The notes under the pieces are model-generated. The model searched no databases and had not been told where the DNA came from. It saw nothing but the letters and a program-made list of their open reading frames with translations. A stretch of DNA of 63,343 bases, filler included, from Chrysochromulina tobinii (Eukaryota), in NCBI GenBank assembly GCA_001275005.1. It is 9 parts of 9 records of this genome, joined end to end, with 100 filler letters (N's around TTAATTAATTAA, not from the genome) between each part and the next. Parts side by side here need not be neighbours in the genome. Positions count along the whole stretch, not along the records: positions 37,617 to 46,145 come from JWZX01000293.1; positions 46,246 to 55,289 come from JWZX01000294.1; 7 more parts are not named here. One strand, written 5' to 3'. This document shows positions 13,527-61,593 of the stretch, one piece after another. Position numbers and translations under genes: made by a program. Each line of letters opens with the position of its first letter. The stretch's first letter is position 1.

Positions 13527-15999
13527 CCTCCTCCTCCTCCTCCTCCTCCTCCTCCTCGCCTTCCTTATCATCGCTCTCGACACTGTATCCTCCTCCTTCT
13601 TGGACTGCTGCTCTCTTCGCAAGCTCCTGATCCAACCACTCCGCTGCCAACCTCGCTACTGGCGGCTCAGCCGTTTGGGATGAAGTTTCCGAGGTAGTCA
13701 AGGCGACGGCCACTGCCGCGCCCTTGAGTGTTCGCTCTAAAGCGGTGCGATCGAGCCCATATGCAAGCACTCTGGAGACCAATGCATCCTTCAGACCCGC
13801 CGCTTCGTTGCCATACTTCAACTCATCCTGCGTGTTGCGACGGTATGCCAATTGATAGCAAGCGGCAAGGAGTTCCCATGCGCGCGCCCTGCAGCTTGCT
13901 GGCCAGAGTGAATGAGACGCCGCATGCCACGGCATGCAAGTGGCAGCTACCAACTGAGCGGCCTCGTACCCGGCTGTCCCTGGTCCACGCTGCAAACTGA
14001 AAAAGGCACGCGATTGAAGGAATGCGTCCTGCACTCGGCCACCCGCGCGAAGCAGGGCCTTGCATTGCAAGGCAGAAAGGAGCTCGAGATAGTGCAACGG
14101 CGACGTATGGTCGCGTGTGCGGCGAAGCCAACGGCAGACAGTAGGGTAGCCAGCCGACACTTGAATGGCTGTCGGAGCACCGGCCAGCTCTCGAGTGGCG
14201 CCATGCAAACACAGCTCCTGCACGTTGCGCAGATGGCCATGACGTGCCGCTAAGAGAAGCGGCGTATCGCCGAAGCCATCTGTTTGGTCGATGTCGGCGC
14301 CCGCTTGCAGAAGGAACCGAATGCAGCGGACATAGTTGCGCTCTGAGTCGGCATGACCTGGGCGTTGATCAGCAGCGTGATGCAAGGGCGTTGATCCATT
14401 TGCAGCCGCCGCCACCAGGCTAGCTCCCGCCCCGAGCTCATGCAGCGCATGCAAGCAGCTCACGTGGCCTTCCATGGCAGCTAGATGCGCGGGCGTCCTT
14501 CCATTTGCAGCCGCCGCCGACAGGCTGGCCCCCGCCCCGAGCTCATACAGCGCATGCAAGCAGCTCACGTGGCCTTTCATGGCAGCGAGATGCGCGGGCG
14601 TCCTTCCATCTGCAGCAGCCGCCGACAGGCTAGCAGCCGCCCCGAGTTCATGCAGCGCATGCAAGCAGCTCACGTGGCCTTCCAGAGCAGCGAGATGCGC
14701 GAGCGTCACTTCATTTGCATCCGCCGCCGACAGGCTGGCCGCCGCCCCGAGCTCATGCAGAGCATGCAAGGAGCTCAAGTGGCCTTCCATTGCAGCGAGA
14801 TGCGCGGGCGTCATTCCATCTGCAGTCGCCGCCGACAGGCTGGCCCCCGCCCCGAGCTCATGCAGAGCATGCAAGCAGCTCACGTGGCCTTCCATTGCAG
14901 CGAGATGCGCGGGCGTCCATCCTTTTGCAGCTGCCGCCGACAGGCTAGCCGCCGCCCCGAGCTCATGCAGTGCATGCATACAGCCCACGTGGCCTTCCAG
15001 AGCAGCCTCATGCGCGGGCGTCCTTCCATCTGCATCCGCCGCCACCAGGCTAGCCCCCGCCCCGAGCTCATGCAGCGCATGCAAGCAGCTCACGTGGCCT
15101 TTCATTGCAGCGCGATGAGCGGGCGTCCCTCCATCTGCATCCGCTGCCGACAGGCTGGCCGCCGCCCCGAGCTCATGCAGCGCATGCAAGCAGCTCACGT
15201 GGCCTTTCCTTGAAGCGAGATGTGCGGGCGTCCTTCCATCTGCAGCCGCCGCCGACAGGCTAGCCGCCGCCCCGAGCTCATGCAGCGCATGCAAGCAGCT
15301 CGCGTGGCCTTGAAAAGCAGCGTCATGCGCGGGTGTCCATCCATTTGCAGACGCCGCCACCAGGCTAGCCGCCGCCCCGAGCTCATGCAGCGCATGCAAG
15401 CAGCTCACGTGGCCTTTCCTTGCAGCGAGATGCGCGGGCGTCCTTCCATCTGCAGCCGCCGCCGACAGGCTGGCCGCCGACCCGAGCTCATGCAGCGCAT
15501 GCAAGCAGCTCGCGTGGCCTTCCATTGCAGCGAGATGCGCTGGCGTCCATCCATCTGCATCCGCCGCCGACAGGCTAGCCGCCGCCCCGAGCTCATGCAG
15601 TGCATGCAAGCAGCTCACGTGGCCTTCCAGAGCAGCGGCATGCGCGGGCGTCCTTCCATTTGCAGACATCGCCGAGAGGCTAGCAGTCGACCCGAGCTCA
15701 TGCAGCGCATGCAAGCAGCTCACGTGGCCTCGCATTGCAGCCCATATTGAGGGCGTCTTTCCATTTGCATCCGCCACCGACAGGGTAGCTTCCGCCCCGA
15801 GCTCATGCAGCGCAACCAAAAAGCTCGCGTGGCCTTCCATAGCAGCAATGTGCGCGGGCGTCTTTCCATTTGCACCCACCGCCATGAGGTTGGCAAGCGC
15901 CAGACCGCGAAGACTGTCGCCATCTCCTTGAAATGCAGCATTGTGTGCAGGACCCAGCACATCTTCCATGGCTGCCCGATGCGTGCCGCTTTCGTCCAC
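13527..15999 (-). CDS. Ankyrin-repeat protein (14 near-identical 35-aa repeats plus caps), 3' partial
   Basis: GxTPAHxAAxxGHVSCLHALHELGAAASLSAAxAD repeats with a 105-nt period (about 14398..15867); poly-Glu runs into the gap; start may be ATG 15969. Confidence 0.92.
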
Positions 16000-29532: not shown

Positions 29533-32114
29533 TTAGCACCTCTCAAAAATCTTGTAGAGCTGCTCCGTGCATGCGACCTGCACGACGGCACCATTGGTGG
29601 CATGCACTGTTGGCGGCTCGTAAGAACGCCGCATGGCCGGCAGCAACACATGTTGGATTGCCCATGCGGCCGAGCACGCCTCTTCTGTTGGTCCATCCGC
29701 GTCTACGACTTCGAGCGCTGCGGGCTCCGCGGTGTCACCCACCTCGTCCACTCGGTAAAGTGTGGCAAGCTGCTTTGCGAGCCCATCGAAGCACGGCTGC
29801 TCTGCCGTCCAGTCGACCTCGTGCACAAGCCGCCTCACAAACGCAGGCAGCCCGTTGAGCGGCGGTACATAGCCATCGACGAGCTGAGGCAGTGCACAGA
29901 GCTGGCCGTCGAAAATCTCCACAGACAAGTATTCCAACAGCATCTCCGCCTTGCTGTCAAGGAGCGCCGCGGCTTGTGCAGCCGCGCGCCGTGCCGCGCG
30001 AGACGGCGCAGCGTCGAAGCGAACGGACGGCATCTCTGGAATCGCGTCGCTGGTGGCGCGACCGCGCACCTCCTCAGGCTCATCGACCTCCGCATCGCCG
30101 CCATCGGCTTCCTCAGCATCCTCAGCGTCGTCCGCGCCCTTGCGGGCGAGGGCCGCGCCAAGCAGGTAGAGATCGGCGACGCTCACTGGCGCTGCGAGAC
30201 GGATAGTGGCGAGGTTGCCCCAGCGACGAAGCGTCTGCTGGTAGAAGAAGGCCTCCGACGCGACACCTAGATGGACGATGTAAAGCTTGGTCAGGTGCTG
30301 CAAGAGCACATAGCGCCGGTCGACGATGCCGACGAACGTGTGCTGCGAGAAGAGGGCGTGCAGCCCGCGCGAAAGGTGCGCCGTCACCCGCCGAAGCAGC
30401 GCATGGATACTTGTGAGTTCGCACGAAACCCAGGGGCGTTGCTGCGCCGCCGGGTGTACGTGCCGCTTCGCCGCGCACGCATTTGGCTGCAAGATGAGTG
30501 TCTCTCGAGTCTCGCCGCAGGCGCTCGAGGGCTCGGGGGGGGCGATGTCCTCATTTCGGCGCCGCTTCCCGCTGGCAAGGCCTTGACCGCTAGCTTCGGC
30601 CTCGGCGCCCCTTGCACCCTTACTGCCGCCCCGATGTTCACCTTGGCTACCGCCGTGGGCGCTCTCTTGGGCGCTTTCCTTGTTGCCGCCCGGGCCAGCT
30701 GGTTGGCTGCCACCGGCATGGCCACTGCTGCTGGCGGCGTCCGAGGGCCGGCGTACGTACTTGTCAAGCTCGCCTGCCGTCATGGTCGTATTGGTTCGAA
30801 CAAGCTTGCGCGGGTCAGGGCCCGTCGCCGCCTTGCTGGCAGGCCGGGGTCCGGCGCTAGCGTCAGCGGCACCGCAAGTGCCACCCGCGTCGCTCGCGCC
30901 GCCTGCGCGCGAGGTGCCCGCATTGGCGCCTGCGACCGCGCCGGGCAGCACGGCCTGCGCGAGGAAGGTGCGCGCCCCGTTGGCGCCGGCCAGGAGCTCG
31001 CGGAGCATCGTCTGCACTGCGGCGACGACGGTCTCCTGTTCGAGGAAGAAGACCTCCCGCTTCGTCGGGTGCACATTGACGTCGAGCGCCGTTGGCGGCA
31101 GCCGCAGAGAAAGGTACACAAACGGGTGGCCACCCTTGGGTAAGCAGGCGGCGTAGGCTTCTTCGACGGCACGGCGCAGACTCGAGCTCTCGACGAGACG
31201 CTTGTTGATGAAGAGCAGGAAGGCGAGCTTCTTGGCGCTATGGCTGGCGTTGCTCACAAGCCCGCGCACCGTCAGGCCGACGCTCGGTTCGGCGCCCTCG
31301 ACGGGCAAGAGCTCTCGCGCTAGGCTCGCGCCAAACACCTGCCGTATTACGTCCGTAGTCGAGTGCTCGCGCAGCGTGCGCAGCTCGGCGCCACACTCGG
31401 TTCCCTTGCTACACGAGATCGCCACGCCTGCATTGTCAATCGCGTACGCCTGCACCACCTGGAGCAGCTTCCCGTACTCCTCCGCCACGCTCTTCATCGC
31501 ACTGCGCCGTGTAGGCGCGTTGTAGAACATGTCCTCGACGACGATGGTGGTGCCGCGTGTGCCCGCGCATGGCTTGGGCTCTGCGGCCTCGCCTGGCTTA
31601 GCCGACACGAGGTGGCCTTCGGCGAAGCACGCGCGATATGCGCAGGGCGACCCGTCGGTCATGCTCGTGATGGTGACGTGCGCCACATGCGATATGGACG
31701 CGAGCGCCTCGCCACGGAAGCCAAATGTCTCAATCTGCTGCAGGTCCTCGTACTCACGCAGCTTCGAGGTAGCGAACCTTTCACAGACCCGACCAAAGTC
31801 GTCACGCATGATGCCATGCCCTGTATCCTGGATCTGCAGAAGCTTGAGCCCACCACCCTTGGCCAGCACAGCAATCGACGTCGCGCCTGCGTCGAGTGAG
31901 TTCTCGAGCATCTCCTTGAGCTGCGCGCACGAGCAGGGCGTGGCATGTTAGTAGAGATGCGTCAGTGCTGCGTCTATGCTGCGTCTGTGCCAGAGTTTGA
32001 TCGCGGATCGCGCACAGCCGAAGCGGGACGGTGAATGACCTCGCCTGCCGCGATCCGGTTGATGCATTGCTGATCCAGCGGACGAATCCGTGGCTGCGAC
32101 ATCGCTCCCTCCAT
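29533..32114 (-). CDS. MLH1: DNA mismatch repair protein MLH1; exons 32016..32114 and 29533..31920
   Basis: INRIAAGEVIHRPASA|LKEMLENSLDAG, GFRGEALASIS, DVNVHPTKREV, C-terminal LYKIFERC; GTGCGC..CAG intron 31921..32015. Confidence 0.97.
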
Positions 32115-37616: not shown

Positions 37617-37839
37617 GCCGCGGGGGCGTACATCGCCTGCCCTGCGGGCATCGCCTGCCCAGCGGCCATCGGCATGAAGGTACCTGTAGGAAGCGGCTGG
37701 AAGGCCGGCTGCCGAGGCGGGTAACCGGGCGTCGGAGGCACCATGTTCGGGCGCATCATGCCCGCCATCGGCATCGGCATCTGCGCACGTGGGCACACGC
37801 GACGCACGGGTGTGAGTGCGACGCTGCGTGGTCAGAGCG
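37617..37839 (-). repeat. 223-bp duplicate of eIF4G-like intron/exon segment 40555..40777, running into the contig end
   Basis: Colinear copy with 3 substitutions seen; includes intron sequence, so DNA-level; A-run at the junction 37840..37849. Confidence 0.9.
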
Positions 37840-37850
37840 AAAAAAAAAAG

Positions 37851-38717
37851 AGGGCCCGGCCGGTTAAAGTACGCGTCGCCGTCGACTAGGACGACGCGGT
37901 TTGCGGCGACGGCGGGCAGTGCTGGCCACCAGTGGGTACTCTGGAGCCGCGCCGCCTCGCGCCGCGTCATGTCCAAGTCCAAGCCGCATGGGCACACGAC
38001 CACCAGCTCTGGCGCCGATGCGACCAACGCCTCGGCGCTCACGGCAAACGAGCGGCCCGCACCCGCGCCCGGCGCTTGGGGCGCTGTCTCGGGCGCCTCG
38101 TTGAGAGGGTGGCGCCCGCCCGCGCGCCGAATCATCTGCGGAGTCCAATGGCCACCCACGTAGATCGGGTCTGGCCATTCGATGAACGCGACCGACGGCG
38201 GCGGCTTGGCTGATGCGTGCACGAGTTCGTCCACGGCGCGCACGCGGGCCACCAGCGCGGCGTGCGCCGCCCGGGCTTCGGATTCCATACCGACGGCCAA
38301 CCCAAGCTGCAGCACAATGTCAAGCACGTCATCGAGCGACTCGGGGTTGAGCGAGACCACCAGCGGCCGCGGGTCCATAGACTGCGCAAGGCGCTCGACC
38401 GTCATGAGGTCGATGGCGCACACGCTGCAAATATCCTGCGTGAGGATGACGTCGGGAGCGAGCTCTTTCAGGAGCTGCTCGTCCAGCGTGTAGAGCGACT
38501 GTCCGCTCGATAGCGAAGCAGAGACTTGCGCGTCCACATCGGCGGCGGTCGTGTAAGCGGTCTTCTGGCCAGTCAACACTGGTAAGTGCGTTATTTCCGG
38601 CGGATAGTTGTCCTCGTGTGAGCGGCCGACGAGCAGATGGCCGCCACCGATGAAACATAGCGCTTCCGTGGCCGAGGGCAGCACCGAGCAAACTCGCAGC
38701 TGTCGGCGGGCCGGCAT
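37851..38717 (-). CDS. BtuF-like cobalamin/Fe-siderophore periplasmic-binding-fold protein, 3' truncated at the duplication junction
   Basis: SVLPSATE, VGRSHE, PDVILTQDICSVCA, GGHWTPQMIRRAGG, CPCGLDL, VDGDAYFNRPGP, then a T-run and the duplicated eIF4G segment. Confidence 0.85.
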
Positions 38718-38834
38718 CACACCCGCTCTGCGCCTGTTAATAAACAAAGAGAATCTATGAATAGGAGCGTCTGAAGCGGCCCTCCCGCACTTTCTCGCAG
38801 TATGTATGGCTCCGCCGCTCCCGGTCAAACACAT

Positions 38835-39008
38835 GTACTGAGTACTCCAAGGGGGTACTCGCTCCCGGCACCCTACCGGCACCCGGGGGACTATACCATG
38901 GCCCGATCATGGGGGCTTCTATATGAATGCATGTACTCAATTATTGCTCGCGGTGACTAGAGGTCGGTCTTAGGTCGGTCTCAGCACTCGGGGTCGGTCT
39001 CTCCCAGC
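38835..39008. repeat. Dispersed motif pair, copy 2 (with 3x ggtcggtct)
   Basis: gtactgagtactc at 38835 and ggtcggtctctcccagc at 38992..39008, as at 18672..18744. Confidence 0.55.
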
Positions 39009-43590: not shown

Positions 43591-46145
43591 TCAGACGGAC
43601 GTGGACACGAGGCTGCCCGTACGCCCTCGGCTGTCGTCCATCCGGGGTAACCTCGTCGGCATCTCGTTCAACTCGAACGCGCGCGTCGGGGGGGCCGCCA
43701 GCTCGTTGGTGGCGCCGGGATTGGCCCCGAAGGCGGTCAGCCCAGGCCCGTTGGTGGCGCCGGGAACGGCCCCGAAGGCGGTGGTGTGATGAAGGCGACT
43801 TCGTCCCGGTCGGAAGGCGGAGGTGCGCAGGGCGTCGTCCTGGGCGTCGCCCAGGGCATCGCCTTGGCTGCGAGGGGAAGGGAGGGGTGTGGGGAGGGGT
43901 GTGGGGAGGGCGAGCATGTATTGCTGGCGCTGCCGAGTGTACTGCTCAAGCTGCTCGAGGGCTGAGGCAGGCAAGCTGTTTGGGATGGCCGGCTCAGAGG
44001 GGGCGACGTGAATCTCCCACACGCGTCCTCTCGCGCCGTCCCGAGCGTCCCAATCGGGCGGCGCGGCACTTAGTCCGAAGCCCACCCTGGCGCCATGGTC
44101 CACCTGCCGCGAGTCACGCCGCCATCCCAAATTTGGAATCGCAAAGGACAACGTGCGAGCGCCGTCCCGATCATGCGCGCCGTCCCGATCATGCGCGCCG
44201 TCCCGAGCACGCGCGTCGTCCCGAGCAAGCGCGTCGTCCCGAGCAAGCGCGCCGTCCCGCTGGCCTCCGGAGCCGTTGGTGTGATGATCCCTGGCGCTGC
44301 TGCTGTCGGTGGCTTCTCGCTGCAGTTCGGCTCGGCGGCACGCGGCGGCGGCTCGGCGGGCACGTGCGACACTCTCTCTCGAGAGGCTCGACTGAAGGTC
44401 TTCGTAGAACCGGATGATGTTCCGCTGCAAGAAGAGCGTGTCGCGCACCTTGCGCACGCGCAGCAGGTGCTGGTTGGCCTCGAGCGGGCGCATGCGTTTC
44501 ACTTGCATCAGCCAGGCCATCGCGATGGCGGCGGAGCGTCCGCGGCCTGACTGGCAGTGGATGTACACGCCCCCGCCGCGCTTGCGATGGTGCTCGATGA
44601 ACGAGACGGCCGTTCGCATCACCTCGACGGTTGGCTCGAGGTGCGCCACGGTCTTGAGCCAGAGCAACGAGATGCCCTTCTTGCGATACACGTGGTGAAG
44701 CCCCTTGTACTCATCGCAGAGGTTGACGATCCCTTGGACGTTGAGAATCTCGAGCTCGCGCAGCTGGCTGTGGAAGAGCGGCGCCTGCCCAAGGAATATC
44801 CGCGGCGATCCGTGTTCATCCGTGGCCATCTGAGGCCATCCGTGGCCATCAGCGGCCATCAGTGGCCATCCGTGGCCATCAGCAGCCATCAGTGGCCATC
44901 AGTGGCAATCAGTGGAAATCAGTGGCAATCAGGTGCACTCAGTGGTCATCAGAGGTCATCAGAGGTCGTCAGAGGTCGTCTGAGGTCATCAGAGGTCGTC
45001 ACCTGCCCGATGATCACGGGCGGGCCTCCATCGCCGTCGTCCACATACGCCCACCAACGCGCCTTGAATGTCCTCTGGTGTCCATAAATGGTGCAAGGCA
45101 GGCATGGGCGGAAGTACAGACGGCCGATCCACTTGGCCATGCAGTAGGGCAGCAGGTGCTTCTGGAAGCACAAGTAGGGCAGCAGGATGCAAGCGAGCCC
45201 GAGAGGCACCCACAGGAAGAGAGCCCATAGCGAGCACAAGAAAGCGAGCAGCGGGCCCTCAAGCCAGCGCCGGGTCGGGCGCGTCATTCCTTGATAGAAG
45301 AAGTCGTACACGAGAGCGTACCTAATTTGGGAGGCACTCGCTCGCAATCAGGGGCCATCAGGGACCATCAGGGGAAGAAGTCGTAGACGAGAGCGTACCA
45401 GAAGGCAAACCAGCTGAGGCCGGAGGAGTTCGCCACCACGAGCGTGTCGCTCGGCAGCCTCACGCCGCTGCTCAAGGCGATGCTCACCGTCGCGGCACTC
45501 GTCGCCACGATCGTTACGCCTGAGCTGTCAAGAACGGACTGCAGGGCGATGAGCGTCGCAACGGTCGACAGTGCCGCCGACTGCGCCGCCGCCGCCTGTT
45601 GGACAGACATGACTGGGAACGTGGCCACGACGTTGACGGACGCGGCGGTTATCTGAAGCATCGACCCCGCTGGAGGCACGGCTCCGAGGCCGAGTGCTCG
45701 AGACAGCGCTCTGAGGAGGAGACGGCGACCAGTTTCGTCAAAGTCCGTTGGGGAGCCTGACGCGACGAAGGCGACGGAGACGGACGCGCTGGCAACGGGC
45801 GGCGATGGCGCCTCGCCACTGCCAGAGCCGACCTCGCCACTGCCAGAGCCGACCTCGCCGTCACCTAAATCATCTTCCGGCGGCGAGGGTGGCGGCGGCG
45901 AGGGTGGCGGCGGCGAGGGTGGCGGCGGCGAGGGTGGCGGCGGCGAGGGAGGCGACGGCGAGGGTGGCGGCGGCGAGGGAGGCGACGGCGAGGGTGGCGG
46001 CGGCGAGGGTGGCGGCGGCGAAGGTGGCGGCGGCGAAGGTGGCGGCGAAGGTGGCAGCGGCGAGGGTGGCGGCGAAGGTGGCGGCGGCCTGGGAGGCGGC
46101 GAGGGTGGCGGCGGGCTTGGCGGCGGCGGCGAGGGGGGTGGCGAG
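43591..46145 (-). CDS. Receptor-like PTPMT1-type dual-specificity phosphatase (SPPP stalk, TM helices, DSP domain), 5' partial; exons 45399..46145, 45003..45321, 43591..44784
   Basis: (SPPPP)n; hydrophobic segments; RLYFRPCLP..RWWAYVD..IGQ|APLF..GIVNLCDEY..HCQSGRGRSAA; introns 45322..45398 and 44785..45002 restore the frame. Confidence 0.85.
44785..45002 (-). mobile_element. Satellite intron (donor-carrying class): GTGACG + ~18 10-nt units + decayed copy of upstream exon end
   Basis: ctgatgacct/ctgattgcca/ctgatggcca array; intron end ggatcgccgcggatattccttgggcag vs exon end ggaggcccgcccgtgatcatcgggcag (17/27, colinear). Confidence 0.65.
45322..45398 (-). mobile_element. Satellite intron (acceptor-carrying class) starting with a 25-nt copy of the downstream exon
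   Basis: 45374..45398 matches 45297..45321 at 24/25; then ccctgatggt-type 10-mers x3 and ...cccaaattAG. Confidence 0.75.
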
Positions 46146-46245
46146 NNNNNNNNNNNNNNNNNNNNNNNNNNNNNNNNNNNNNNNNNNNNTTAATTAATTA
46201 ANNNNNNNNNNNNNNNNNNNNNNNNNNNNNNNNNNNNNNNNNNNN
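46146..46245. other. Artificial contig spacer
   Basis: N44-TTAATTAATTAA-N44. Confidence 0.98.
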
Positions 46246-46246
46246 A

Positions 46247-49076
46247 GAGCATGCGAGCTATACACGGCTGAACAACATGCTCGCTGGCCGATTTGCCGCA
46301 GGCATGGTACGTACCGTCATCGCACGAGGCAAGAAGCTTGACTCGTACTTTGCTGCCATCAAGGCGTCCGCGGCCACGTCTCTTGTCATCGATCTCTCAA
46401 ATCTGATAAAGTGCACCGACAAGGAGCTGAAACTCCTCACGGCGGCACTGCCCAATTCACTCGAGTCGCTCAACTTGCAACTCAAGGGCACTAAGGCCAC
46501 GGAGGAGGGCGTCACAGCTCTCTTCAAGCACGTGTGCAACCTCCCGCGGATGCGACGCCTCGAATCGGATGCTCTCGCATCAACGCACATGCCGCTCGTG
46601 ATGAAGATGGCCATGCTTGAAGAGTTCCCCGCCAGGGGGCGTTGGTTTCCTTGTGCGATGGCTCTCATCAATGCGGCAGCAAAGCGTGCCACTACTCTCA
46701 AGTCTCTCGACGCATCTCTCGACTCTAATTTCAGAGACGGCGCTCCTGCTGAGGGGCACGAGATGGGAGTACAGATTGGCAAGGTGCTTGAGGGCAATGC
46801 CATCAGATCGGTATGGTCTCCAACCCACAAACCCACGCCTGCGTCACAAATCAGCACCTTGCATGTGCATCACCGGCTCTACGCTTCCCGATTCCCTGGT
46901 GCACATGTGCTCTCGTTTGCAGCTCGACTTGAGAGGGAACAGGCTTGGTCCAGCGGGTGCTGCGGCTCTTGCGCTTGGGCTCGCTGCTAATTGCTCGCTG
47001 ACGGCCCTGAATTTGTCCTCTAACCGCCTCGAGGATGAGGGCGCAAGCGCAGTCTGCAAGGCCATCCAGAGTAACATGGAGACCAAGCTCGCGTCGCTCA
47101 ACTTCGAGAGTAATGGAATCGGTCCAGCTGGAGCAAATGAAGTGGCGGCTATGGTAGCCGTCACAGGCGCATTGACTGAGGTATGCTGAGCTCTAGCCCA
47201 GATGTGCTCCCTCTTGCACTGACATCTGGAGGTCCCTCATGCATAGGTGAACTTGGATGGGTTTGCTCTTCCTGTCAAGAAGCTCCAGAGCACCAATCCC
47301 GTGGAGACGCTTGACCTCTCAGGCAAGAATCTCGGCGTTGCCTCTGCGGTTGTGATCGCCTCCTTGATTTGTGCCAATTGCGCGCTGACGAGCCTGGACA
47401 TCTCCAACAACTCACTCTGCGGAGTGAACGCCTACGCCGGCACCTACACTGCAGAGGGGATCACGGCGATTGCCGACGCTCTGCGCGTCAATGGCGGGCT
47501 GACCAAAATATCTCTCGCCAAAAACGTGTTGGGGGAGGAGGGCACCAAGGCCATCTGTGAGGCTCTAGAACAGAACAAGACGCTCAAGGAGCTTGACATC
47601 AGCGGCGATAGATTCGAAAAGAGCACCATTGGTGGGACAGCAGGAGCCAAGCATGTGGCCAAGATGCTTGGCGTCAACGGCGCGCTGACAGGCATCGACC
47701 TCTCCGGAAACCAGCTGTGTGGCATCTGGACTGACGACGATGGCGACCAAAATGGCACCTACACAGCAGAGGGCATCACCGCAATCGCCGACGCCCTGCG
47801 TGTTAATGGCGGGCTGACGAGCCTCAACCTCAGCTCCAACCAGCTGTGCGGCCTCGATCATCGTGGAAGAGGAACTTATACTGCAGAGGGCATCACAGCG
47901 ATTGCCGACGCTCTGCGCGTCAATGGCGCGCTGACGGAGCTGTCGCTCGCCCAAAACAAGTTGGAGGAGGAGGGCACCAAAGCCATCTGCGAGGCACTAG
48001 AACAGAACACGACGCTCAAGGAGCTTGACATCAGCGGCGGGTACGAAGGCGACATCGGCGGGTCAGCAGGTGCCAAGCATGTAGCCAAGATGCTTGGCGT
48101 CAATGGCGCGCTGACGAGCCTGGACCTCTCCAACAACCAGCTGTGCGGCCTCAATCATTATGGGCGTGGAACTTACACTGCAGAGGGGATCACAGCGATT
48201 GCCGACGCTCTCCTTGTCAATAGCACGCTGACGAAGCTGTCGCTAGCCCAAAACAAGCTGGAGGAGGCGGGCACCAAAGCCATCTGCGAGGCACTAGAAC
48301 AGAACATGACGCTCAAGGAGCTTGACATCAGGCGGGAATTTTGGATAGGCAGCAACACTGGTGGTTCAGCAGGAGCTAAGCACGTGGCCAAGATGGTACG
48401 TGTCAATGGCGGGCTGACGAGCATCGACCTCTCCGGAAACAAGCTGAGCGGCATCTGGACTGACAGCTATGGCAACCAACGAGGCGCCTTCACTGCAGAG
48501 GGCATCACTGCAATCGCCGACGCCCTGCGCGTTAATGGCGCGCTGACGGTGACCAACCTCCTGGGCAATCAGCTTGATGCAGAGTCCGCCAAGATGCTCG
48601 CTGAGGTTGCCAAGCAGAAGGGCATCTCGCTCTGCGGCATCCAGCGTGACCAGACCACCGCTGACTTCTCCAACCAGAACCTCAAGCCGCCCGATGCTAT
48701 CCTGCTGGCGTCGGACCTGTTACAGGCCGATGTCACAGGCGGGCTGACGAGCCTCAACCTCAGCTCCAACGAGCTGTGCGGCCTCCATAAGGATGGGTGC
48801 GGAACTTACACTGCAGAGGGCATCGCAGCGATTGCCGACGCTCTGCGCGTTAATGGCGGGCTGACGAGCCTGGACCTCTCCAACAACGCACTCTGCGGAG
48901 TGACCCGCTTTGGTGGCACCTACACTGCAGAGGGGATCACAGCAATTGCCGACGCTCTGCGCGTCAATGGCGCATTGACTGAGTGCGACCTCTCGCATAA
49001 CGGCTTGGGCGAGGAAGGGAAGGCCTCCATTCGTTTCGCAGCGCAAGGAAAGGCTGGTTTCAAGCTGCATCTGTGA
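46247..49076 (+). CDS. RI-type (NLRC3-like) leucine-rich-repeat protein, 5' partial; exons ..46810, 46923..47180, 47247..49076
   Basis: LTSLDLSNNQLCG..GTYTAEGITAIADALRVNG repeats; GT-AG introns 46811..46922 and 47181..47246 keep the frame. Confidence 0.9.
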
Positions 49077-49477
49077 GCTGCAACTGTGGTCTGTGCGCGT
49101 GCTCTGCGTCTCTGTTAATTAGGGTGCTCTGGTGTGAATCTTCGCGGTGCGCGATTCGTCATGTTTCGTTCCAGCTTCCACGGACACACATTTCATGCAC
49201 GCTCTTGTCTACCTCATCCTTGAACAGGCATGAAGCGTGCTGTTGAGCCGCCGCGCATTGGGCCAGCCGCATTGTGTTGCCATCGGCGGCAGCCATTGCC
49301 GCAGCACCCTCCCGGCGTACGTAAACGGATAACACCTTCTAGGCGATTGGTACAAACATCATCGATCAATCAGTGGCATCCCTGTCCCTGCTCCTACAGA
49401 ATGATGGCCCGCAAAACTCCAACGCCGTCGCGTCCCCGTCGGTGTCGGTCGAGACGGTCTCATCTGACTCTAAACCA

Positions 49478-52400
49478 CTAAAGGTACTTGGATAGGTCGG
49501 GCCGCTGCCGACGCATCGAGGCGGCGGGGACTTCGAAGGACGCCCGGCTGCGCGCGGCGCCTGCGCCCGCGACGGAGCCCGCGCCCGGAGCCTTCGAGCG
49601 GCCTGCGCACAGCTTATCCCATGCGGGCGAGGGCGCGATGCGATCGTACAGCCCCGCACTCGCCGCGGGCACCGGCTCGCCGGGTGCGCGGGGTGTCAGT
49701 CCGTGGAGCAGCGCGCACAGCTCGGCGGGGAACGAGGGCGGCGTCGTCGCACGCTCCCGCTCGAGGCGCCAGCGCAGCATCTCGCTCCAGACGGCCCGGT
49801 CGACCAGCGGCGGCGCGATGAGCGAGAGCGTATCGGCAAGGAGGGCTTCCTTGATTTGGTAGTCTAGGGGGTTGTCTCGCGTGAGCTGCGGCGACGAGTT
49901 GACCTCGATCAGCCACGGCTTGAGCTGTGCGTCGATCAGGACATCATACCCGAAGAGCTCAAAGCTATTTGGCGACGCGGGGATCGCCTCGTGCACTGCG
50001 TACAGGGAGCGCAGGATCACGTCGACGATCCGCGCCCAGAGCACGTCGACGTCCATCCCAGCAGCCGCCAAGCGCCGCTTGAGCTGCGAGAGGGCCACCT
50101 TCGTCCCACCCTTCTCGGCGTCGACACCGGGCACCGCGGCGGCGCGTTGGGCGTCCGGCTGCTCCTTTTGGATCGAGGAATTCGTCAGATGGACGAAGAG
50201 GTTGCGCAGCTGCGTGAGCGAGAGTGTGAACGGCTCGGTCGCGAAACGGCCGAAGCCCTCGCGGTACAAGAAAGCCTCGAGAGGGTGCGTCGAGGTGACG
50301 CACACGTACAGCCGCAAGTCAAACTTGTACCCGTCGAGCAGCAGTGGATCTGCAACGTACCGTTGGATGACCATGGGCTCTCCGTACGCTACGTCGGAGA
50401 TGTCGGCCACCATCGAGATGCCTGTGGGGAGAGGGGGGGGGGGCGTGGTGAGCACATGCATGCCGAGCGTCGCCGGTCACCGAGCCGTCGAGCTGCACGT
50501 ACCTCTCCCTCGGGAGAGACCGACCGGCTTGAGGATCCATAAGTTCGTGGCTGCCTGCGCCGCGAGTGCCGCACGAGCGAACGCGGCGCTCGTGCCCGGA
50601 TCGGCGCCGTCGCGCTGTAGGGCGGACGCCGCTGCCTCGGCCGCGGCGGCCGCCTCCTTGGCCGCATCGGCCGCCATGCTGAACGCTTCGGTGAACGCAA
50701 GCAGCTCGGCAGGCAGTGTGAACGTGAGCGGCATGATGTCGAAAGACTCAGCAAGGCGCTCGGAGAGCTGGCGCTGGCGCTGCAGGTGCTTCTTGAGCAG
50801 GTCCTTGCGGGTCAGGTGGCGCGCCTGTGGGAAATGGTTGACGCGCTGCCAGGGCAGCAGCTCGGCCCACGAGATCTTGGGCGCGCGCCACGTCCACAGC
50901 ACGTCCCACGTAGCCGAGACCATCCGCTGCGCAACCGACGAGAGGGCTCCATCAGCGGCAATCAGAGGCAATCTTGAGGACTCATGAGCAAGCAGTGGCA
51001 CCCAGATGCACTCAGATGCACTCAGATGCACTCAGATGCACTCAGATGCACTCAGATGCACTCAGATGCACTCAGATGTAATCAGTCTCACCTGTGGAAC
51101 CGACGAGGGCAACTCGAGCCAGCGCAGATGAGGGAGGCAATCATAGGTCATCAGAGGCAATCAGTCTCACCTGTGGAACCGACGAGGGCAACTCGAGCCA
51201 GCGCAGCCCATCCGCTCCAGGCCGATGCCGCCCACCCCTGATCACGTCGCGCACGATGTCGAACACCTCCTGCCTCGCCTGCTGCACACGTATGTAGCGC
51301 CAGGCCCAGCTAGGCTGCGGCGGCCCGCCCTGCGCATCAAGCGCCGTTTGGAGCGCCGCCTGGGCTTGCAAGTAACCCTGTAGCAGCGGCGCGCTCGGCA
51401 CAGCGCCCCCGAGGAGTTCCTCCACCTTGGTACACGGCGGGTGGAAGCCGTTACAGCCGTTACCGGCCTTGCCAGCCCCAGTGCCCCCCGCTTTGGTGCC
51501 AGCGCCGGCGGCGCTCAACACGACGCCGGTCGGCCGTCTCGAGCCCGACCGTGACGGGAGCACTAGCAGCAGCTGCTGGAAGAGCGACCTCGCCGCCTCC
51601 GAAAAGTCGACATGCGGAGGGACGCCCGAGCACTCGACCACAGCGGCGACGACCGCCTCCGTCGCGCACGGGAAGAGGCGCAGCAGACGCGCCGTCGCGG
51701 TCGCCGCCGTCGGGGGAACGCTGCCCACGCGCGCCGAGCCGAGCGCTGTGCCGCCCTCCTCTTCGGGCCAGTTTGGGTCCCCCGCCTCGTCCGTCGCTTC
51801 GTCCGCGGCCACGTCGACTGCCTCGTCGTCGTCGTCGTCGTCGTCGTCGTCTCCATCGATCCTCTCATCGACCACTCCGGCGGCCTGCGCTGCTCGCGTC
51901 CCATTTGGAGCCACCTGTGGGGAAGGGGGGGCGCCGTGGTGAGCACATGCATGCAAGGCAGGAGGCGGAGGCCGTTGCTCTCGTCCCATCTGGAGCTACC
52001 TCGGCGGCCTCAGCCTCCGTGGCTGTGCCCTCGTCCTCGCCCTCGTCCTCGTCGTCGTCGTTGTCGTTGTCCTCGTCGTCCTCCTCCTCGTCGTCATCGA
52101 GGAACGCCGCGAGGTTCGCTCTTGGCAGTCGCCGGAATCCCATCGACGCCGCCTCGGCCTCCGCCTCGAACGCCGCGACCTCGGCCGCCGCCTCCGCTGC
52201 TGCTGCTGCTTTTGCTGCCGCCCTGGCCCTGGCCGCCGTGGCTGCCTCTGACTTGGCCGCGTGTGCCTGTGAAGAGGCAATCAAGAGGCAATTAACGACA
52301 CTCACCTCCGCCTTGGCCGCGTGTGTGTGTGAAGAGGCAATCAAGAGGCAATCAACGACACTCACCTCCGCCTTGGCCGCGTGTGTGTGTGAAGAGACAA

Positions 52401-53630
52401 TCAAAAGGCAATCAACGACACTCACCTCCGCCTTGGCCGCGTGTGCCGCCGCTGCAGCAGCTGCCCTGGTCCTGGCGGCCACGACTGCCTCAGCCGTGGC
52501 CACATCCTCCTCGTCCTCGTCCACCGCCTCCTCGGCCGCGGCAGACTCGTCCAAAGCGTCGTCCCAAGCGCGCGCGTCGTCGCAAGAGCGCGCGTCGTCC
52601 CAAGCGCGCGCGTCGTCGCAAGCGCGCGCTCCCTCCGTGGGAGACATCGCCTCCACCGACATCGCATCTGCACCAGCCTCCGCTCCCTCCTCCTCCGCCT
52701 CCGCCTCCACCTCCGCCTCCTCCGCCTCCTCCTCCGCCTCCTTCGCCTCCTCCCCTGTGTGGTCATCGTCGCCACCGTTGTCAACAGCCGCCTCTGCTGA
52801 GGGCTCTTCACATTCACACTCTGCTGAGGGCTCTTCCGGCGCCTCGTCGTCAGGAATGAGCGCCGTCTCGGGCACTGCCTTCGTTTCAGTCCCAATCTCA
52901 CCGCCGACCTCGGCGACATCTTCCATGGCGGCAGCCGCTGCCTCCTCTAACGCCACCTCCGCCGCCACCTCCTCATCCGCCGCCACACCGTCATTGGCTG
53001 CCGCCTCCTCCGCAACGACCTCCTCATCCATCACCTCAGACGCATCGGTCGGAGGAGCCTGACACAGCGGCGGCTGACTCAGCGGCGTCGCCAACCCGCC
53101 CATGAGCCTGACCGACGCCGCCGGCCGCGCCGACGCAGTCCCCGAGGCTGCCGTCGCGACCGCTGTCAGCCGTGCTGGGCGCTGTGCTGGGCGCGCGCTA
53201 GCGCCGCCACTGGCTGGTGCTGCCGCTACGGCGCCCGTACTGGGCTTGGCCACAGAGGGCGCCATCGCTGTGGTGGGCGCCAACGCTGCCGAACTGCATG
53301 CAAATCGCTTCGCCGCCTGGAGCCGCTCTATCGCCGCCCGTCGACCCGCCTCGGCTCGTTCCTTGGCCTTCTCCTTCTCGAGAGCCTCCGCGGACGCGAT
53401 CGCGGCGGCCCTCTCCGCGCGCTCGCGCCGCTCCGTCTGCTTCGCCTCCGCCTCAGCGCGTTGTGCCGCGCGGATGCGCTGCGCCAGGCTCATGCTGGCA
53501 TTCGACGGCGGCACAGAGGCGGCCGGCGGTGCGCGCGGCGTGGGCGGTGCAGAGTTCGCGCCATCTTCGGCTGCCAACCGCAAACCGCTGCTCGCTGCAA
53601 TTGCCGGCACTGCTGCTCCAGCCGCTCCTG

Positions 53631-53694
<64 letters not shown>

Positions 53695-54057
53695 TGCCGC
53701 TCCTCCTCCGCTCAGTACATCGCTGAGGCCTGCACTCGCCGGCCACAGCGCACTGGCTGCAAGCGACTGCACACGCCGCTCCATGTCAAACCCTGGGAGT
53801 GGCGCGGCGTACGGCGCTGCGGCCGGCTGTTGCGGCGTCATTGGACGGAATGGCGCGAGGATGGCCTCGCTCGAGCCGCGCTCCTCGAGCTCTTGGCCGA
53901 GCTGGTTCCGCTGGCGGCGCACGCGGTCCACATCCACGCTCGAAGCCGCGCTGGCGGAGCCGAGGTAGGCGTCCATGCTACGCACCATGTTCTGCAGCGT
54001 CGCGGTGTCCGCGTCGAAGAGCTCAAGCATGGTCGTCGGATGGAGCGGGAACGCCAT
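49478..54057 (-). CDS. Tubulin-tyrosine-ligase-like (TTLL) polyglutamylase with long acidic N-terminal region; exons 52426..54057, 52000..52245(or 52266), 51171..51914, 50503..50926, 49478..50421
   Basis: WQRVNHFP..LTRKDLL, IMPLTFTLP, WILKPVGLSRGRGI, VIQRYVADPLLLDGYKFDLRLYV, HLTNSSIQK, FELFGYDVLID..PWLIEVNSSP; introns restore the frame. Confidence 0.9.
50422..50502 (-). mobile_element. Intron with shared branch/acceptor tail (acceptor-carrying class, decayed duplication)
   Basis: gcatgcatgtgctcaccacg (50444..50463) is identical to 51935..51954, then a C-run + ccccacAG; gcagctcgacgg near the donor vs downstream exon gcatctcgatgg (10/12). Confidence 0.65.
50927..51170 (-). mobile_element. Nested satellite intron (donor-carrying class) with internal 48-nt perfect duplication and 8 ctcagatgca-type units
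   Basis: 51080..51127 is identical to 51159..51206; satellite 51001..51080; intron end ctcgtcggttgcgcag vs exon end ctcgtcggttccacag (14/16). Confidence 0.75.
51915..51999 (-). mobile_element. Intron (acceptor-carrying class) starting with a 27-nt copy of the downstream exon
   Basis: 51973..51999 vs 51888..51914, 23/27; shared tail gcatgcatgtgctcaccacg..ccccacAG. Confidence 0.75.
52246..52425 (-). mobile_element. 3 x 60-nt tandem intron unit (GTGAGT donor + ttgattgcct-type 10-mers + copy of upstream exon end)
   Basis: gtgagtgtcgttgattgcctcttgattgcctcttcacacacacacgcggccaaggcggag x3; alternative in-frame CAG acceptor at 52267. Confidence 0.7.
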
Positions 54058-58779: not shown

Positions 58780-61593
58780 GCCTGTGCTACTCAAAAGCTT
58801 CCGAGAGAGTGAGAGCAGCAGCTTTGATCAAGAGCGTTTAACCGAAAGAGCTGCGGCAGCGAGCGTCACACCCGAAACAGCTGCGGCAGCGAGCGTCACA
58901 CCCGACAGGGCGAACAGCAGTGCCAGCGAAGGGCCTGCGCCAACCAAGCCTCTTAGAGCGAGAGCAGCAACTTTGACCAACTTTGATTGAGAGCGTAGCC
59001 GACGCAGCTGTGGCGGCGAGCGTCACACCTGGCAGGGCGATCAGCGGCGTGCGTGCTGAGCAGCAAGCGGCCTGTGCCACTCAAGCTTCAGAGAGAGCGA
59101 GAGAGCAGCAGCTTTGATCGAGAGCGTATAGCTGACGCAGCTGCGGTGCCGAGTGTCACATCTAGGCGAGGAGATCCGCGGTACGCGCGTTAAGCAGCGA
59201 GCGCCTGTGCCACTCAAGCTAGAGAGAGCGAGAGCAGCTGCTTTGATCGCAGCAGCTTTGATCGAGAGCGTATAGCCGCCGCAGCTCTGCATCGGCGAGC
59301 GTAAGACCCGACAGGGCGATCAGGGGTGCCAGCGTCGAGCAGCCTGTGCCGCTCAAGCCTGAGAGAGCGAGAGCAGCAGCCTAGATCGAGAAAGCCGCGG
59401 CGGCGAGCGTCACACCCGACCGAAGGGCGATCAGCGGTGCTTGAGCAGCAAGCGGCCTGTGCCGCTCAAGCTTCCGAGAGAGCGAGAGCAGCAGCTTTGA
59501 TCGAAAGCGTATAGCCGACGCAGCCGCGGCTGCGAGCGTCACACCTGGCAGGGTGATCAGCGGTGCCAGCGCCGAGCAGCAAGCGGCCTGTGCCACTCGA
59601 GAAGAAGAGAAGCCTGTGCCATTCAAGCTTCCGAGAGAGCAAGAGAGCAGCAGCTTTGATCGAGAGCGTATAGCCGACGCAACTGCGGTGCCGAGTGTCA
59701 CAACCCGGCATCGCGATCCGCGGAACGCGCGCTGAGCAGCGAGAGCCTGTGCCACTCAAACGAGAGAGAGCGCGATCAGCAGTGCGCTTTCGCTGAGCAG
59801 CTAGCGGCCTTTGCCACTTAAGCTTCCAAGAGAGCGAGAGCAAGGCCACTTAAGCTTCCAAGAGAGCGAGAGCAGCTGCTTTGATCAAGATCGTATATAG
59901 CGTATAGCCGTCGCAGCTGCGGCGGCGAGCGTCACACCCGACAGGGCAATCAGTGGTGCCAGCGAAGGGCCTGCACCGCTCAAGCCTCCGAGAGCGAGGG
60001 TAGCGAGCGGCCTGTGCCACTCAAACCTCGGAGAGCGAGAGCAGCGGCTTTGATCGAGAGCGTATATAGCCGTATAGCCGTCGCAGCTGCGGCGGCGAGC
60101 ATCACACCCGACAGGGCGATCAGCGATGCCCGCGCCGAGCAGCAAGCGGCCTGTGCCACTCAGGCTTCCGAGAGAGCGAGAGCAGCAGCTTTGATCGAGA
60201 GCGTATAGCCGACGCAGCTGCGGCGGCAAGCGTCACACCCAACAAGGCGAACATCAGCGGTGCGCTCGCCGAGCAGCGAGCAGCCTGTGCCACTCGAGAA
60301 GCCTGTGCCACTCAAGCTTCCAAGAGATCGAGAGCAGCAGCTTCGATCGAGAGCGTATATAGCCGATGCAGCACCCGTATAGCCGACGCGATCGAGAGCG
60401 TATAGCCGATGCAGCACCCGTATAGCCGACGCAGCACACCCGACGAGGCGATCAGCGGTACGCTCGCTGCTCAGCTGGTGCCACTCAAGCTTCCAAGAGA
60501 GCGAGAACAGCAGCTTTGATCGAGAGCGTATAGCTAACGCAGCTGCGGAGGCCAGCCTCACACCCGGCAGGGCGATCTGCGGTGCGCTCGCCGAGCAGCG
60601 AGCGGCCTGTGCCACTCGAGAAGCCTGTGCCACTCAAGCTTCGAAGAGATCGAGAGCAGCAGCTTCGATCGAGAGCGTATAGCCGACGCAGCACCCGACG
60701 AGGTGATCAGCGGTACGCTCGCTGCTCAGCTGGTGCCACTCAAGCTTCCAAGAGAGCGAGAACAGCACAGCTTTGATTGAGAGCGTATAGCCGACGCAGC
60801 CGCAGAGGCCAGCGTCACACCCGGCAGGGCGATCAGCGATGCGCTCGCCGAGCAGCAAGCGGGGCCTGTGCCACTCGAGAAGCCTGCGTGTCACTCAAGC
60901 CTCCGAGAGAGCGAGAGCAGCAGCTTTGATCGAGAGTGCTGCTGACGCAGCTGCGGCGGCAAGCGTCACACCCAACAGGGCGATCAGCAGTGCGCTTTCG
61001 CTGAGCAGCTAGCGGCCTTTGCCACTTAAGCTTCCAAGAGAGCGAGAGCAAGGCCACTTAAGCTTCCAAGAGAGCGAGAGCAGCTGCTTTGATCGAGAGC
61101 GTATAGCCGTCGCAGCTGCGGCGGCAAGCGTCACACCCGACAGGGCGATCAGTGGTGCCAGCGAAGGGCCTGCACCGCTCAAGCCTCCGAGAGCGAGGGT
61201 AGCGAACGGCCTGTGCCACACAAACCTCGGAGAGCGAGAGCAGCTGCTTAGTGCTTTGATCGGGAGCGTATAGCCGTATAGCCGTCGCAGCTGCGGCGGC
61301 GAGCGTCACACCCGACAGGGCGATCAGCGCTGCCCGCGCCGAGCAGCAAGCGGCCTGTGCCACTCAGGCTTCCAAGAGAGCGAGAACAGCAGCTTTGATC
61401 GAGAGCGTATAGCCGACGCAGCTGCGGCGGCACGCGTCACACCCAACAGGGCGATCAGCGGTGCGCTCGCCGAGCAGCGAGCGGCCTGTGCCACTCGAGA
61501 AGCCCGTGCCACTCAAGCTTCGAAGAGATCGAGAGCAGCAGCTTCGATCGAGAGCGTATAGCCGACGCAGCACCCGACGAGGTGATCAGCGGT
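58780..61593. repeat. Complex satellite of ~130-170-bp modular units with higher-order (~1.2 kb) structure
   Basis: Recurrent cctgtgccactcaagcttccgagagagcgagagcagcagctttgatcgagagcgtatagccgacgcagctgcggcggcgagcgtcacacccgacagggcgatcagc; variant block at 59772 recurs at 60980. Confidence 0.92.

Follow-up and report, generated by a model that had tools for sequence, protein, structure and literature searches.

Many short introns of a freshwater haptophyte lineage that includes Chrysochromulina tobinii follow a common design, in which a target stretch is duplicated, a piece of another intron lies between the two copies, and a splice site is taken over from the duplication. This design is genuine and widespread in the lineage, and its best reading, with a probability of about 0.55, is microhomology-guided templated insertion at staggered breaks. 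An earlier note on this DNA had taken the insert for a dedicated splice-signal module; however, parents can be traced and the fillers are variably truncated copies of other introns.

Six introns in two host genes

The window, meaning the whole stretch of DNA analyzed (63,343 nucleotides of C. tobinii, filler included), carries all six segments described in the earlier note at the coordinates given there; they lie on its minus strand, each GT...AG, and are distributed over two contigs with an N spacer between them.

43591..46145, minus strand: host gene 2, PTPMT1-like dual-specificity phosphatase (Pfam DSPc, homologues)
44785..45002, minus strand: predicted intron of 218 nt (17/27 exon match; frame)
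45322..45398, minus strand: predicted intron of 77 nt (24/25 exon match; frame requires excision)
49478..54057, minus strand: host gene 1, tubulin-tyrosine-ligase-like (TTLL5-like) protein, start approximate (Pfam TTL, E 3.6e-55, homologues)
50422..50502, minus strand: intron of 81 nt (RNA runs X11, X12, and X15; homologues colinear over the junction)
50927..51170, minus strand: intron of 244 nt (RNA joint 50926-51171)
51080..51206, minus strand: secondary event at an existing donor (perfect 48-nt duplication)
51915..51999, minus strand: intron of 85 nt (23/27 exon match; shared pieces)
52267..52425, minus strand: intron of 159 nt (RNA joint; RNA record 52073-52268)

The expected restoration of the reading frames was borne out: the phosphatase, which has a proline-rich N-terminus and is cut off by the contig end, is free of stops only if both of its segments are taken out, and the TTLL frame is open after excision of its four. 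End-anchored identity was compared with a control set comprising every GT/GC or AG site of the window minus strand, and similarity to the flanking exon was above chance for five of the six segments. The downstream exon start was matched by 45322..45398 (24/25, reached by 0/10,816 controls) and 51915..51999 (23/27, 0/10,835), and the upstream exon end by 50927..51170 (14/16, 0/3,664), the segment at 52246 (20/25, 0/3,643), and 44785..45002 (17/27, 0/3,675). Self-duplication, claimed for all six, thus stands for five but not for 50422..50502, and the assignments of two of the six examples, this intron and the acceptor at 52246, had to be given up.

In the phosphatase gene, 45322..45398 begins with 25 nt copied from the start of the downstream exon, which give the GT, and continues into a 10-mer satellite module with the AG end; 44785..45002 consists of a donor, a 10-mer satellite array, and, at 44785..44811, 27 nt copied from the end of the upstream exon and now decayed. 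The 3' end of the latter, read in frame, resembles the homologous exon and is also found in 12 of the 15 members listed of a 92%-identical protein cluster; judged from these sequences, this intron, common to the sister population, may be old. A paralogue origin of its end was rejected because homologues show a likeness to the ancestral exon.

At 85% likeness, repeats overwhelmed the RNA alignment, which gave no joint for these introns, and 97% was used thereafter. In run X11, RNA contigs connect 50926 with 51171, skipping 244 nt with a short side of 94 nt, in exact agreement with the predicted junctions; this joint is absent from DNA run X1, whose contigs show 0 differences to the region in all pieces listed. 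The 14/16 terminal copy in this intron lies at 50927..50942, next to a 10-mer array. The 36-nt perfect internal copy reported for it exists but measures 48 nt, since 36 nt of exon end are followed by 12 nt of donor; the two copies (51159..51206 and 51080..51127) are separated by 31 nt of satellite filler. This duplication arose at a pre-existing donor and created no new intron. The 85-nt intron consists of 27 nt repeated from the beginning of the downstream exon, a linker common with metagenome locus L042, and the acceptor tail, and foreign contigs stack in number on 51912-51962. No RNA joint is listed at 97% for 50422 or 51915, which says nothing on retention.

The intron formerly ended at 52246 lies within 3.3 units of a 60-nt array, each made of an exon word of about 21 nt and a mini-intron of 39 nt. 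An RNA joint at this repeat skips 159 nt (short side of 27 nt, below the 30-nt caution), and one RNA contig covers 52073-52268 continuously, at 0 differences. Together they put the splice at 52267; therefore the acceptor is the CAG of the module, which splices with its own donor and acceptor, and the last exon-like copy is retained, adding 7 codons to the TTLL mRNA.

The 81-nt intron had been considered a decayed self-duplication, but it does not match its own exon colinearly (4/12 and 8/25, equaled by about half or more of the controls), and its 10/12 match begins 6 nt within the intron. Instead, its first 42 nt are the same as part of another transcript and are followed by the shared acceptor tail. 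Three RNA runs have longer contigs that contain the stretch 50461-50502 uninterrupted between foreign flanks, with 0 differences listed for X12 and X15. It is therefore likely to be a whole-intron copy out of another gene.

Only one empty/filled pair was found, and as it is located at an existing donor, no new exonic intron has been seen together with an empty allele; part of the events reshape existing introns instead of making new ones. Relatives with 61-67% protein identity, one of them on a 219-kb contig, read through the intron sites as single ORFs. Such read-through could also represent intron loss.

Recurrence of the design in metagenome loci

The recurrence set consisted of 126 metagenome loci picked by the tail motif, with several samples and strains pooled. 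In these loci, a copy of the downstream exon opens 58/89 tail introns, compared with 0.17% in swapped controls, and 80/184 satellite introns have the upstream flank duplicated close to their end, compared with 7/735 controls; the similarity between intron and exon ends on which the original proposal depended is far above that of the controls. The recurring pattern is a duplication (median 25-26 nt), a piece of another intron, and the duplication again, with a period of about 78 nt, and of the 313 spaced direct repeats in the loci, 214 enclose a module. Similar structures appear again in independent assemblies. The duplications, about a third of the intron, are long and variable as had been claimed, at about 15-45 nt overall and 17-42 nt between the 5th and 95th percentiles (n=149; detection floor 16 nt). 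Perfect copies (35/84) are in line with the suggested spread of insertion ages. Intron length does not depend on the length of the duplication (slope 0.13, p 0.30, n=84), a finding compatible both with selection and with existing introns being overwritten.

Among 132 oriented events, the cut falls where the duplication begins in 59, where it ends in 13, and within it in 19, and 41 lack a precise cut by the test used. Both polarities occur, as reported, but the two mirror-image classes are the two ends of one continuum and not separate classes. A precise GT..AG cut is available in 73/132 events in the module sense against 13 in antisense. The splice site is taken over from the target duplication, including at the RNA joint at 50927, and a GT or GC donor stands at the start of 74/84 duplications; the duplication is preceded by the base pair AG or GG in 39/84 cases and by CG in 20. 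Short events do not survive only in frame, since multiples of three are not enriched (4/8 versus 53/124). Modules less than 1 kb apart share their orientation in 432 cases versus 16, an observation that speaks against the templated-insertion reading.

Fillers, junctions, and traced parents

The sharing of modules among unrelated introns was borne out: fillers are common to unrelated genes, and the introns do not consist of locally duplicated sequence alone. Nearly all fillers, those of non-coding examples included, are module or simple-repeat sequence, and several unrelated simple-repeat fillers follow the same pattern. Locus-specific 5' parts occur in 84/129 tail introns, and pairs with a shared linker show no overall trend to share exon starts. 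The filler ends vary on both sides; 39/62 tail fillers end 20-29 nt beyond the branch motif, forming an acceptor peak, whereas 14/62 stop before the acceptor zone. The mean microhomology at the left junction is 1.75 nt against 0.47 (n=60), and the corresponding values are 2.95 against 0.56 at the right junction (n=66) and 2.49 against 0.44 at right junctions off the acceptor (n=35). As the earlier note had stated, TIRs are absent (128 fillers; best end complementarity over 10 nt at most 7/10), and neither an A or T stretch of at least 6 (0/132 fillers) nor a stable fold or hairpin (z +0.8 to +1.6 and -0.09) was detected.

A systematic parent search returned 24 of 16,500 pairs, mostly artefacts caused by two mis-called acceptors, so only pairs verified by eye were retained. 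L090 contains about 12 nt of the upstream exon of L089 along with its intron, L039, located 3' of a stop codon, contains about 7 nt of the downstream exon of L032, and L098 and L125 have flank matches of 11 and 15 nt, one on each side. L019 and L087 come from the L074 type, L071 is a copy in cis across 1.2 kb, and whole copies are few (L019 and window 50422). Antisense copies with duplications exist at L023 (past the stop codon), L042 (57 nt, in frame), and L021, and the copy number of tandem units differs between samples. Given that the exon flanks of the parent are carried along and that antisense and non-coding copies occur, the template was unspliced, and splicing probably selects the surviving copies.

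Proposed mechanism and alternative explanations

According to the proposed mechanism, a target stretch of 15-45 nt would become duplicated, and a truncated tail-type or 10-mer-satellite intron piece would come to lie between the copies with microhomology at both ends, as seen in the loci above. The DNA strand would change template where a few bases match, probably during repair of a staggered break, with theta-type end joining as the candidate pathway. The donor would be unspliced, because parental exon flanks travel along in three pairs, and was presumably DNA and not pre-mRNA. The event would need neither orientation nor splice signals, because antisense and non-coding copies occur; spliceable copies would persist in exons as new introns, and the surplus of precise GT..AG products near 78 nt would reflect selection. 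A new intron could itself become a parent, as in the traced pairs, and its flanking repeats would allow tandem expansion or drop-out, a direction that we infer. The previous preference for a mechanism of the repair or priming kind over cut-and-paste is supported. Random-donor repair does not predict the dominance of module and simple-repeat fillers; some donor specificity thus lies beyond its explanation.

An unlikely alternative is that a reverse transcriptase, primed at a nick by microhomology on unspliced pre-mRNA or intron RNA, makes the copy, a second nick giving the long TSD (TPRT-like or RNA-templated repair). Non-LTR elements produce variable duplications and are truncated at one end with microhomology, and both traits are present here; the acceptor peak of the tail family and the near-precise ends of the whole-intron copies (L019 and window 50422) agree with it, and an RNA donor would account for the preference for introns as template. 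Nevertheless, A/T runs are missing from all 132 fillers, both ends vary, and exon flanks on both sides rule out the excised lariat as the only template. An RT is absent among the 40 window ORFs scanned, which says little, and neither an endonuclease nor a small RNA turned up in the sequences analyzed.

Donor specificity and tandem units would also be accounted for by a non-autonomous element with loose ends, in which the tail and the 10-mer are cis signals for an HUH (Replitron- or Helitron-like) mover. This is quite improbable, as there is no fixed end, terminal direct repeat, or stable hairpin, mixed base pairs precede the duplication, and unrelated simple-repeat fillers show the same pattern. 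Rfam over 44200-53000 yielded a single match (E 0.48, under its gathering score) and module motifs were absent from viral contigs (0 matches). In prokaryote genomes they had three matches, which showed no acceptor or duplication in the context displayed and were dismissed as chance.

Very doubtful is a further possibility, that the introns are old or whole copies came first and that the duplication was added later, when a repair strand copied exon or spliced mRNA over one end in an abortive intron loss. The independence of intron length and duplication size, the mirror-image polarities, the donor as the usual start of the duplication, the possible age of the 44785 intron, and the secondary events at existing donors are all in its favor; yet junction-spanning, non-coding, and antisense duplications are impossible from a spliced mRNA template, and no allele with the intron but without the terminal duplication was present in the few orthologous pairs inspected. 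Chance likeness or assembly artefact, conceivable in GC-rich repetitive DNA whose satellites are prone to mis-assembly, is negligible in view of the controls, the RNA joint, the X1 contigs without differences, and the recurrence in independent assemblies.

Comparison with known systems

Introners are described as multi-copy intron sequences in which a target duplication gives one splice site, and each family has short TSDs of a set length (3-9 bp, or 3-8 nt in Polarella); they have been recorded in marine Chrysochromulina MAGs, one with a 4-bp TSD and no TIR, and a 2025 screen gave 0 introner families for C. tobinii (PMC9860276; PMC12130899; bioRxiv 10.1101/2020.10.14.339549). The present introns are likewise multi-copy and take a splice site from the target duplication in either polarity, but introner families are similar end to end, whereas here the copies are chimeric and their boundaries are not both shared, the duplications measure about 17-42 nt, and the TIRs of MITE-type introners are absent. 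As in tandem genomic duplication (PMC3443670), a duplicated exon segment gives splice sites, and 19/132 events are cut inside it; in contrast to that process, foreign filler common to unrelated genes separates the copies and usually brings the branch point and one splice site. Direct repeats round the insert, junction microhomology, and ectopic donors are shared with break-repair intron gain, for which a review's table holds 5 unambiguous events, compared with an estimated thousands per genome here, where introns recur as donors and parents are traceable. Another parallel is intron transposition (PMC3443670), in that whole introns reappear elsewhere (L074 to L019; window 50422) and some copies are guided by flank similarity, although donor and recipient are not paralogues, most copies are partial, and parental exon flanks can be captured. 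Copy-and-paste, a variable TSD, and carried parental flank recall Replitron-1/N1 of Chlamydomonas, but the size (0.9-3.6 kb), fixed left end, terminal direct repeats, and RG target of Replitrons are not seen here (PMC10288648). A variable TSD and truncation with microhomology are shared with TPRT of SINE and non-LTR elements, whose fixed 3' end with a poly(A) or simple tail is absent. Emiliania introns contain 10-11-bp repeats; a literature search for these did not find them. The literature searches turned up no account of chimeric introns with long duplications in haptophytes; the present introns could overlap with known Chrysochromulina families in supplementary introner tables.

Significance

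The origin of new spliceosomal introns is an old question, for which recent screens favor transposons with defined ends. The introns described here would represent intron making without a conventional transposon. We put forward, tentatively and at somewhat less than even odds, that it is self-propagating without any defined element, any intron serving as template and the product, in thousands, as the next parent. The anatomy of each event preserves the target, the donor, and both switch points, and with traceable parents and alleles that differ among samples, the mechanisms are open to test. If true, tandem duplication, break repair, and intron transposition would merge into one high-rate process. 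Introner screens demand end-to-end similarity, and such introns would escape them; they may explain unaccounted intron gains in other eukaryotes. Furthermore, the flanking repeats offer a direct path by which introns can be lost exactly and short coding stretches added, such as the 7 codons in TTLL.

Exon-end duplications in two haptophyte genes

The window consists of nine contigs with N spacers between them. The named homologues of its proteins are from haptophytes (Prymnesium parvum, Chrysotila, and Diacronema), and matching sequence occurs in mixed-culture and freshwater samples; judged by GC content and habitat, the source is probably an alga resembling Chrysochromulina. Six candidate introns proposed in an earlier note were found at the positions assigned to them, all starting with GT and ending with AG:

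44785..45002, minus strand, PTPMT1-like phosphatase gene
45322..45398, minus strand, PTPMT1-like phosphatase gene
50422..50502, minus strand, TTLL (TTLL5-like) gene
50927..51170, minus strand, TTLL gene
51915..51999, minus strand, TTLL gene
52246..52425, minus strand, TTLL gene

Once the segments are removed, both frames are open, as had been claimed, and homologous proteins are colinear over the 50422 and 50927 sites. RNA run X11 contains the exact joint 50926-51171, which is absent from DNA run X1. The proposed exon-end duplication holds for five of the six introns, whose end-anchored identities beat every control site in the window; that of 50422..50502 does not. The latter had been considered a decayed self-duplication, but its first 42 nt (50461-50502; translation YVQLDGSVTGDAR, which we take to resemble an SNF2-type helicase motif) were found in three RNA runs within longer contigs with foreign flanks. 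For this reason, it was most likely copied recently from an intron in a different gene, along with the donor gene's own exon duplicate. The acceptor at 52246 also has to be revised: the RNA joint corresponds to 52267..52425 (159 nt), although its short side of 27 nt makes it weaker, and an RNA contig spans 52073-52268 without differences. The final exon-like copy thus stays in the mRNA, adding 7 codons.

Other features of the window were the following:

14372-15883, array of ankyrin repeats (14.4 x 105 nt, 86% identical) within an unbroken ORF
37620-38906, periplasmic-binding-protein domain (PF01497, E 3e-11), possibly of bacterial origin; its contig is eukaryotic and also carries the phosphatase gene
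37631 and 40569, the two occurrences of one short repeat
45878-46143, extensin-like repeat of Ser-Pro on the N-terminal side of the PTPMT1-like phosphatase domain
46246-49076, leucine-rich-repeat gene that has many near-copies in RNA runs; its introns (~65 and ~113 nt) look ordinary and have neither module nor duplication
58842-61238, complex nested minisatellite (periods 20 to 159 nt)

Abundance and shared anatomy

One scan with a 19-nt acceptor-tail motif returned 131 stretches out of an estimated 1,300, corresponding to 126 metagenome loci (758 kb; designated by L numbers). There were 149 distinct tail sites; at 100, the acceptor could be called and the flank was long enough, and removing redundancy left 89 (two from the window). 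In 58/89 tail introns, the start of the downstream exon recurs upstream (score of at least 12), versus 0.17% of swapped pairs. A relaxed motif gave 84/129, with 67 copies starting with GT, 7 with GC, and 35 being perfect; the median duplication was 25 nt and the median intron 78 nt (10-90%: 67-87). Arrays of the 10-mer satellite were followed by a copy of the upstream flank in 80/184 cases, a few of them plain tandem repeats, versus 7/735 controls. Away from the anchor motif, 291 kb contained 11 tails and 52 satellite clusters, and the window 2 and 4, respectively. This extrapolates to thousands of such introns per genome, provided that the genome measures ~60 Mb, the size given for C. tobin in PMC4580454. 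Module introns are unevenly bunched in a few genes; MLH1 and two kinases (window 29533-31947, 614-1825, and 4205-5587) are long uninterrupted ORFs.

An unbiased repeat scan, with 26 redundant loci left out, identified 313 spaced direct repeats, 214 of them with a module in between. In 149 events the repeat itself contains no module motif, and the period was 65-95 nt in 112 of these. For the 132 events with an orientation, exact GT..AG excision was available in 73 with the module in sense and 13 in antisense; with GC donors allowed, the cut fell at the repeat start (59), its end (13), or inside (19), and 41 had none by this test. Donor-side and acceptor-side modules are often two halves of a single consensus intron. 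Both ends of the filler, the insert between the two copies, are variable, and no TIR, poly(A), or hairpin was found in fillers. Junction microhomology was three- to sixfold over swapped controls on both sides, the right-hand value being perhaps inflated by nested events. Other simple repeats (6-mers, 12-mers, and 4-mers) lie between long direct repeats at L020, L085, L118, L014, L071, and L050, and the process is therefore not confined to two module families. In 4/4 linker families (L048/L111, L042/window 51915, L001/L049, and L059/L064), sister copies exit the duplication near the same linker point, a hint of favored switch points or of discrete donors.

Template and mechanism

In traced pairs, parent introns and the daughters carrying their copied pieces reside in unrelated genes. 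L090, in an aldo-keto-reductase-like gene (judged by eye), carries ~12 nt of the L089 upstream exon plus the L089 intron, with entry at a 6-nt match; L039, 3' of a stop codon, carries the tail and ~7 nt of the L032 downstream exon, with return at a 6-nt match; and flank likeness between L098 and L125 is 11 and 15 nt. Since traced pairs carry the parent's exon flanks, the copied template is unspliced. An L074-type intron is present as a whole copy in L019 and a partial one in L087, and L071 illustrates copying in cis. Antisense fillers with duplications (L023, directly past a stop codon; L042, in frame; and L021) indicate that splice signals are not required for the event. Even so, neighboring modules at most 1 kb apart had the same orientation in 432 cases versus 16. 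The L042 insertion (864-950; 57 nt) would, if unspliced, lengthen the product of its DNA-methyltransferase-like host gene by 19 residues; L068:5229-5780 holds a complete intron unit in tandem antisense copies nested in a sense-strand intron.

We favor, with a probability of roughly 0.55, DNA-level template switching guided by microhomology: a DNA strand would switch templates at microhomology at a staggered target site, and splicing would then filter which insertions persist. Against this stand the donors, nearly always introns or simple repeats, and a total intron length independent of duplication length (slope 0.13). Reverse transcriptase-primed copying of pre-mRNA is an unlikely competitor. 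Mobilization by an HUH element is less probable still; Replitron-1 is described in PMC10288648 with variable TSDs and parent-flank capture. About as improbable, and marginally the weakest, is the later overwriting of older introns.

Gain or remodeling of introns

Unit copy number varies between samples (L036/L072 and L005/L017). In the sole empty/filled pair, 162 nt were inserted at a pre-existing donor; the 48-nt event within 50927..51170 likewise occurred at a donor already present. Relatives of 61-67% identity have single ORFs through these intron sites (for 50927, one on a 219-kb contig), their gene calls evidently being unspliced. These read-through relatives point indirectly to new intron positions arising by insertion, intron loss in the relatives being the alternative. 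For the 44785 intron, an old duplication fits two observations: a 92%-identical population has the intron too, and the intron end is nearer in reading to the relatives' homologous exon than the present exon is.

As in introners, a splice site is co-opted from the target duplication; however, introners are defined by end-to-end similarity and a short fixed TSD, neither of which is seen here (compared with PMC9860276, PMC12130899, and bioRxiv 2020.10.14.339549, and further with PMC3443670, PMC11282704, PMC7407515, PMC4580454, and PMC10288648). PMC12130899 assigns 0 introner families to C. tobinii and notes an Emiliania family with 10-bp terminal direct repeats. A literature search, with subscription journals mostly outside its coverage, found no account of this intron pattern, which is apparently undescribed so far. 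The pattern is real, lineage-wide, and mechanistically informative; it represents a variant of intron gain and may prove to be a new kind.
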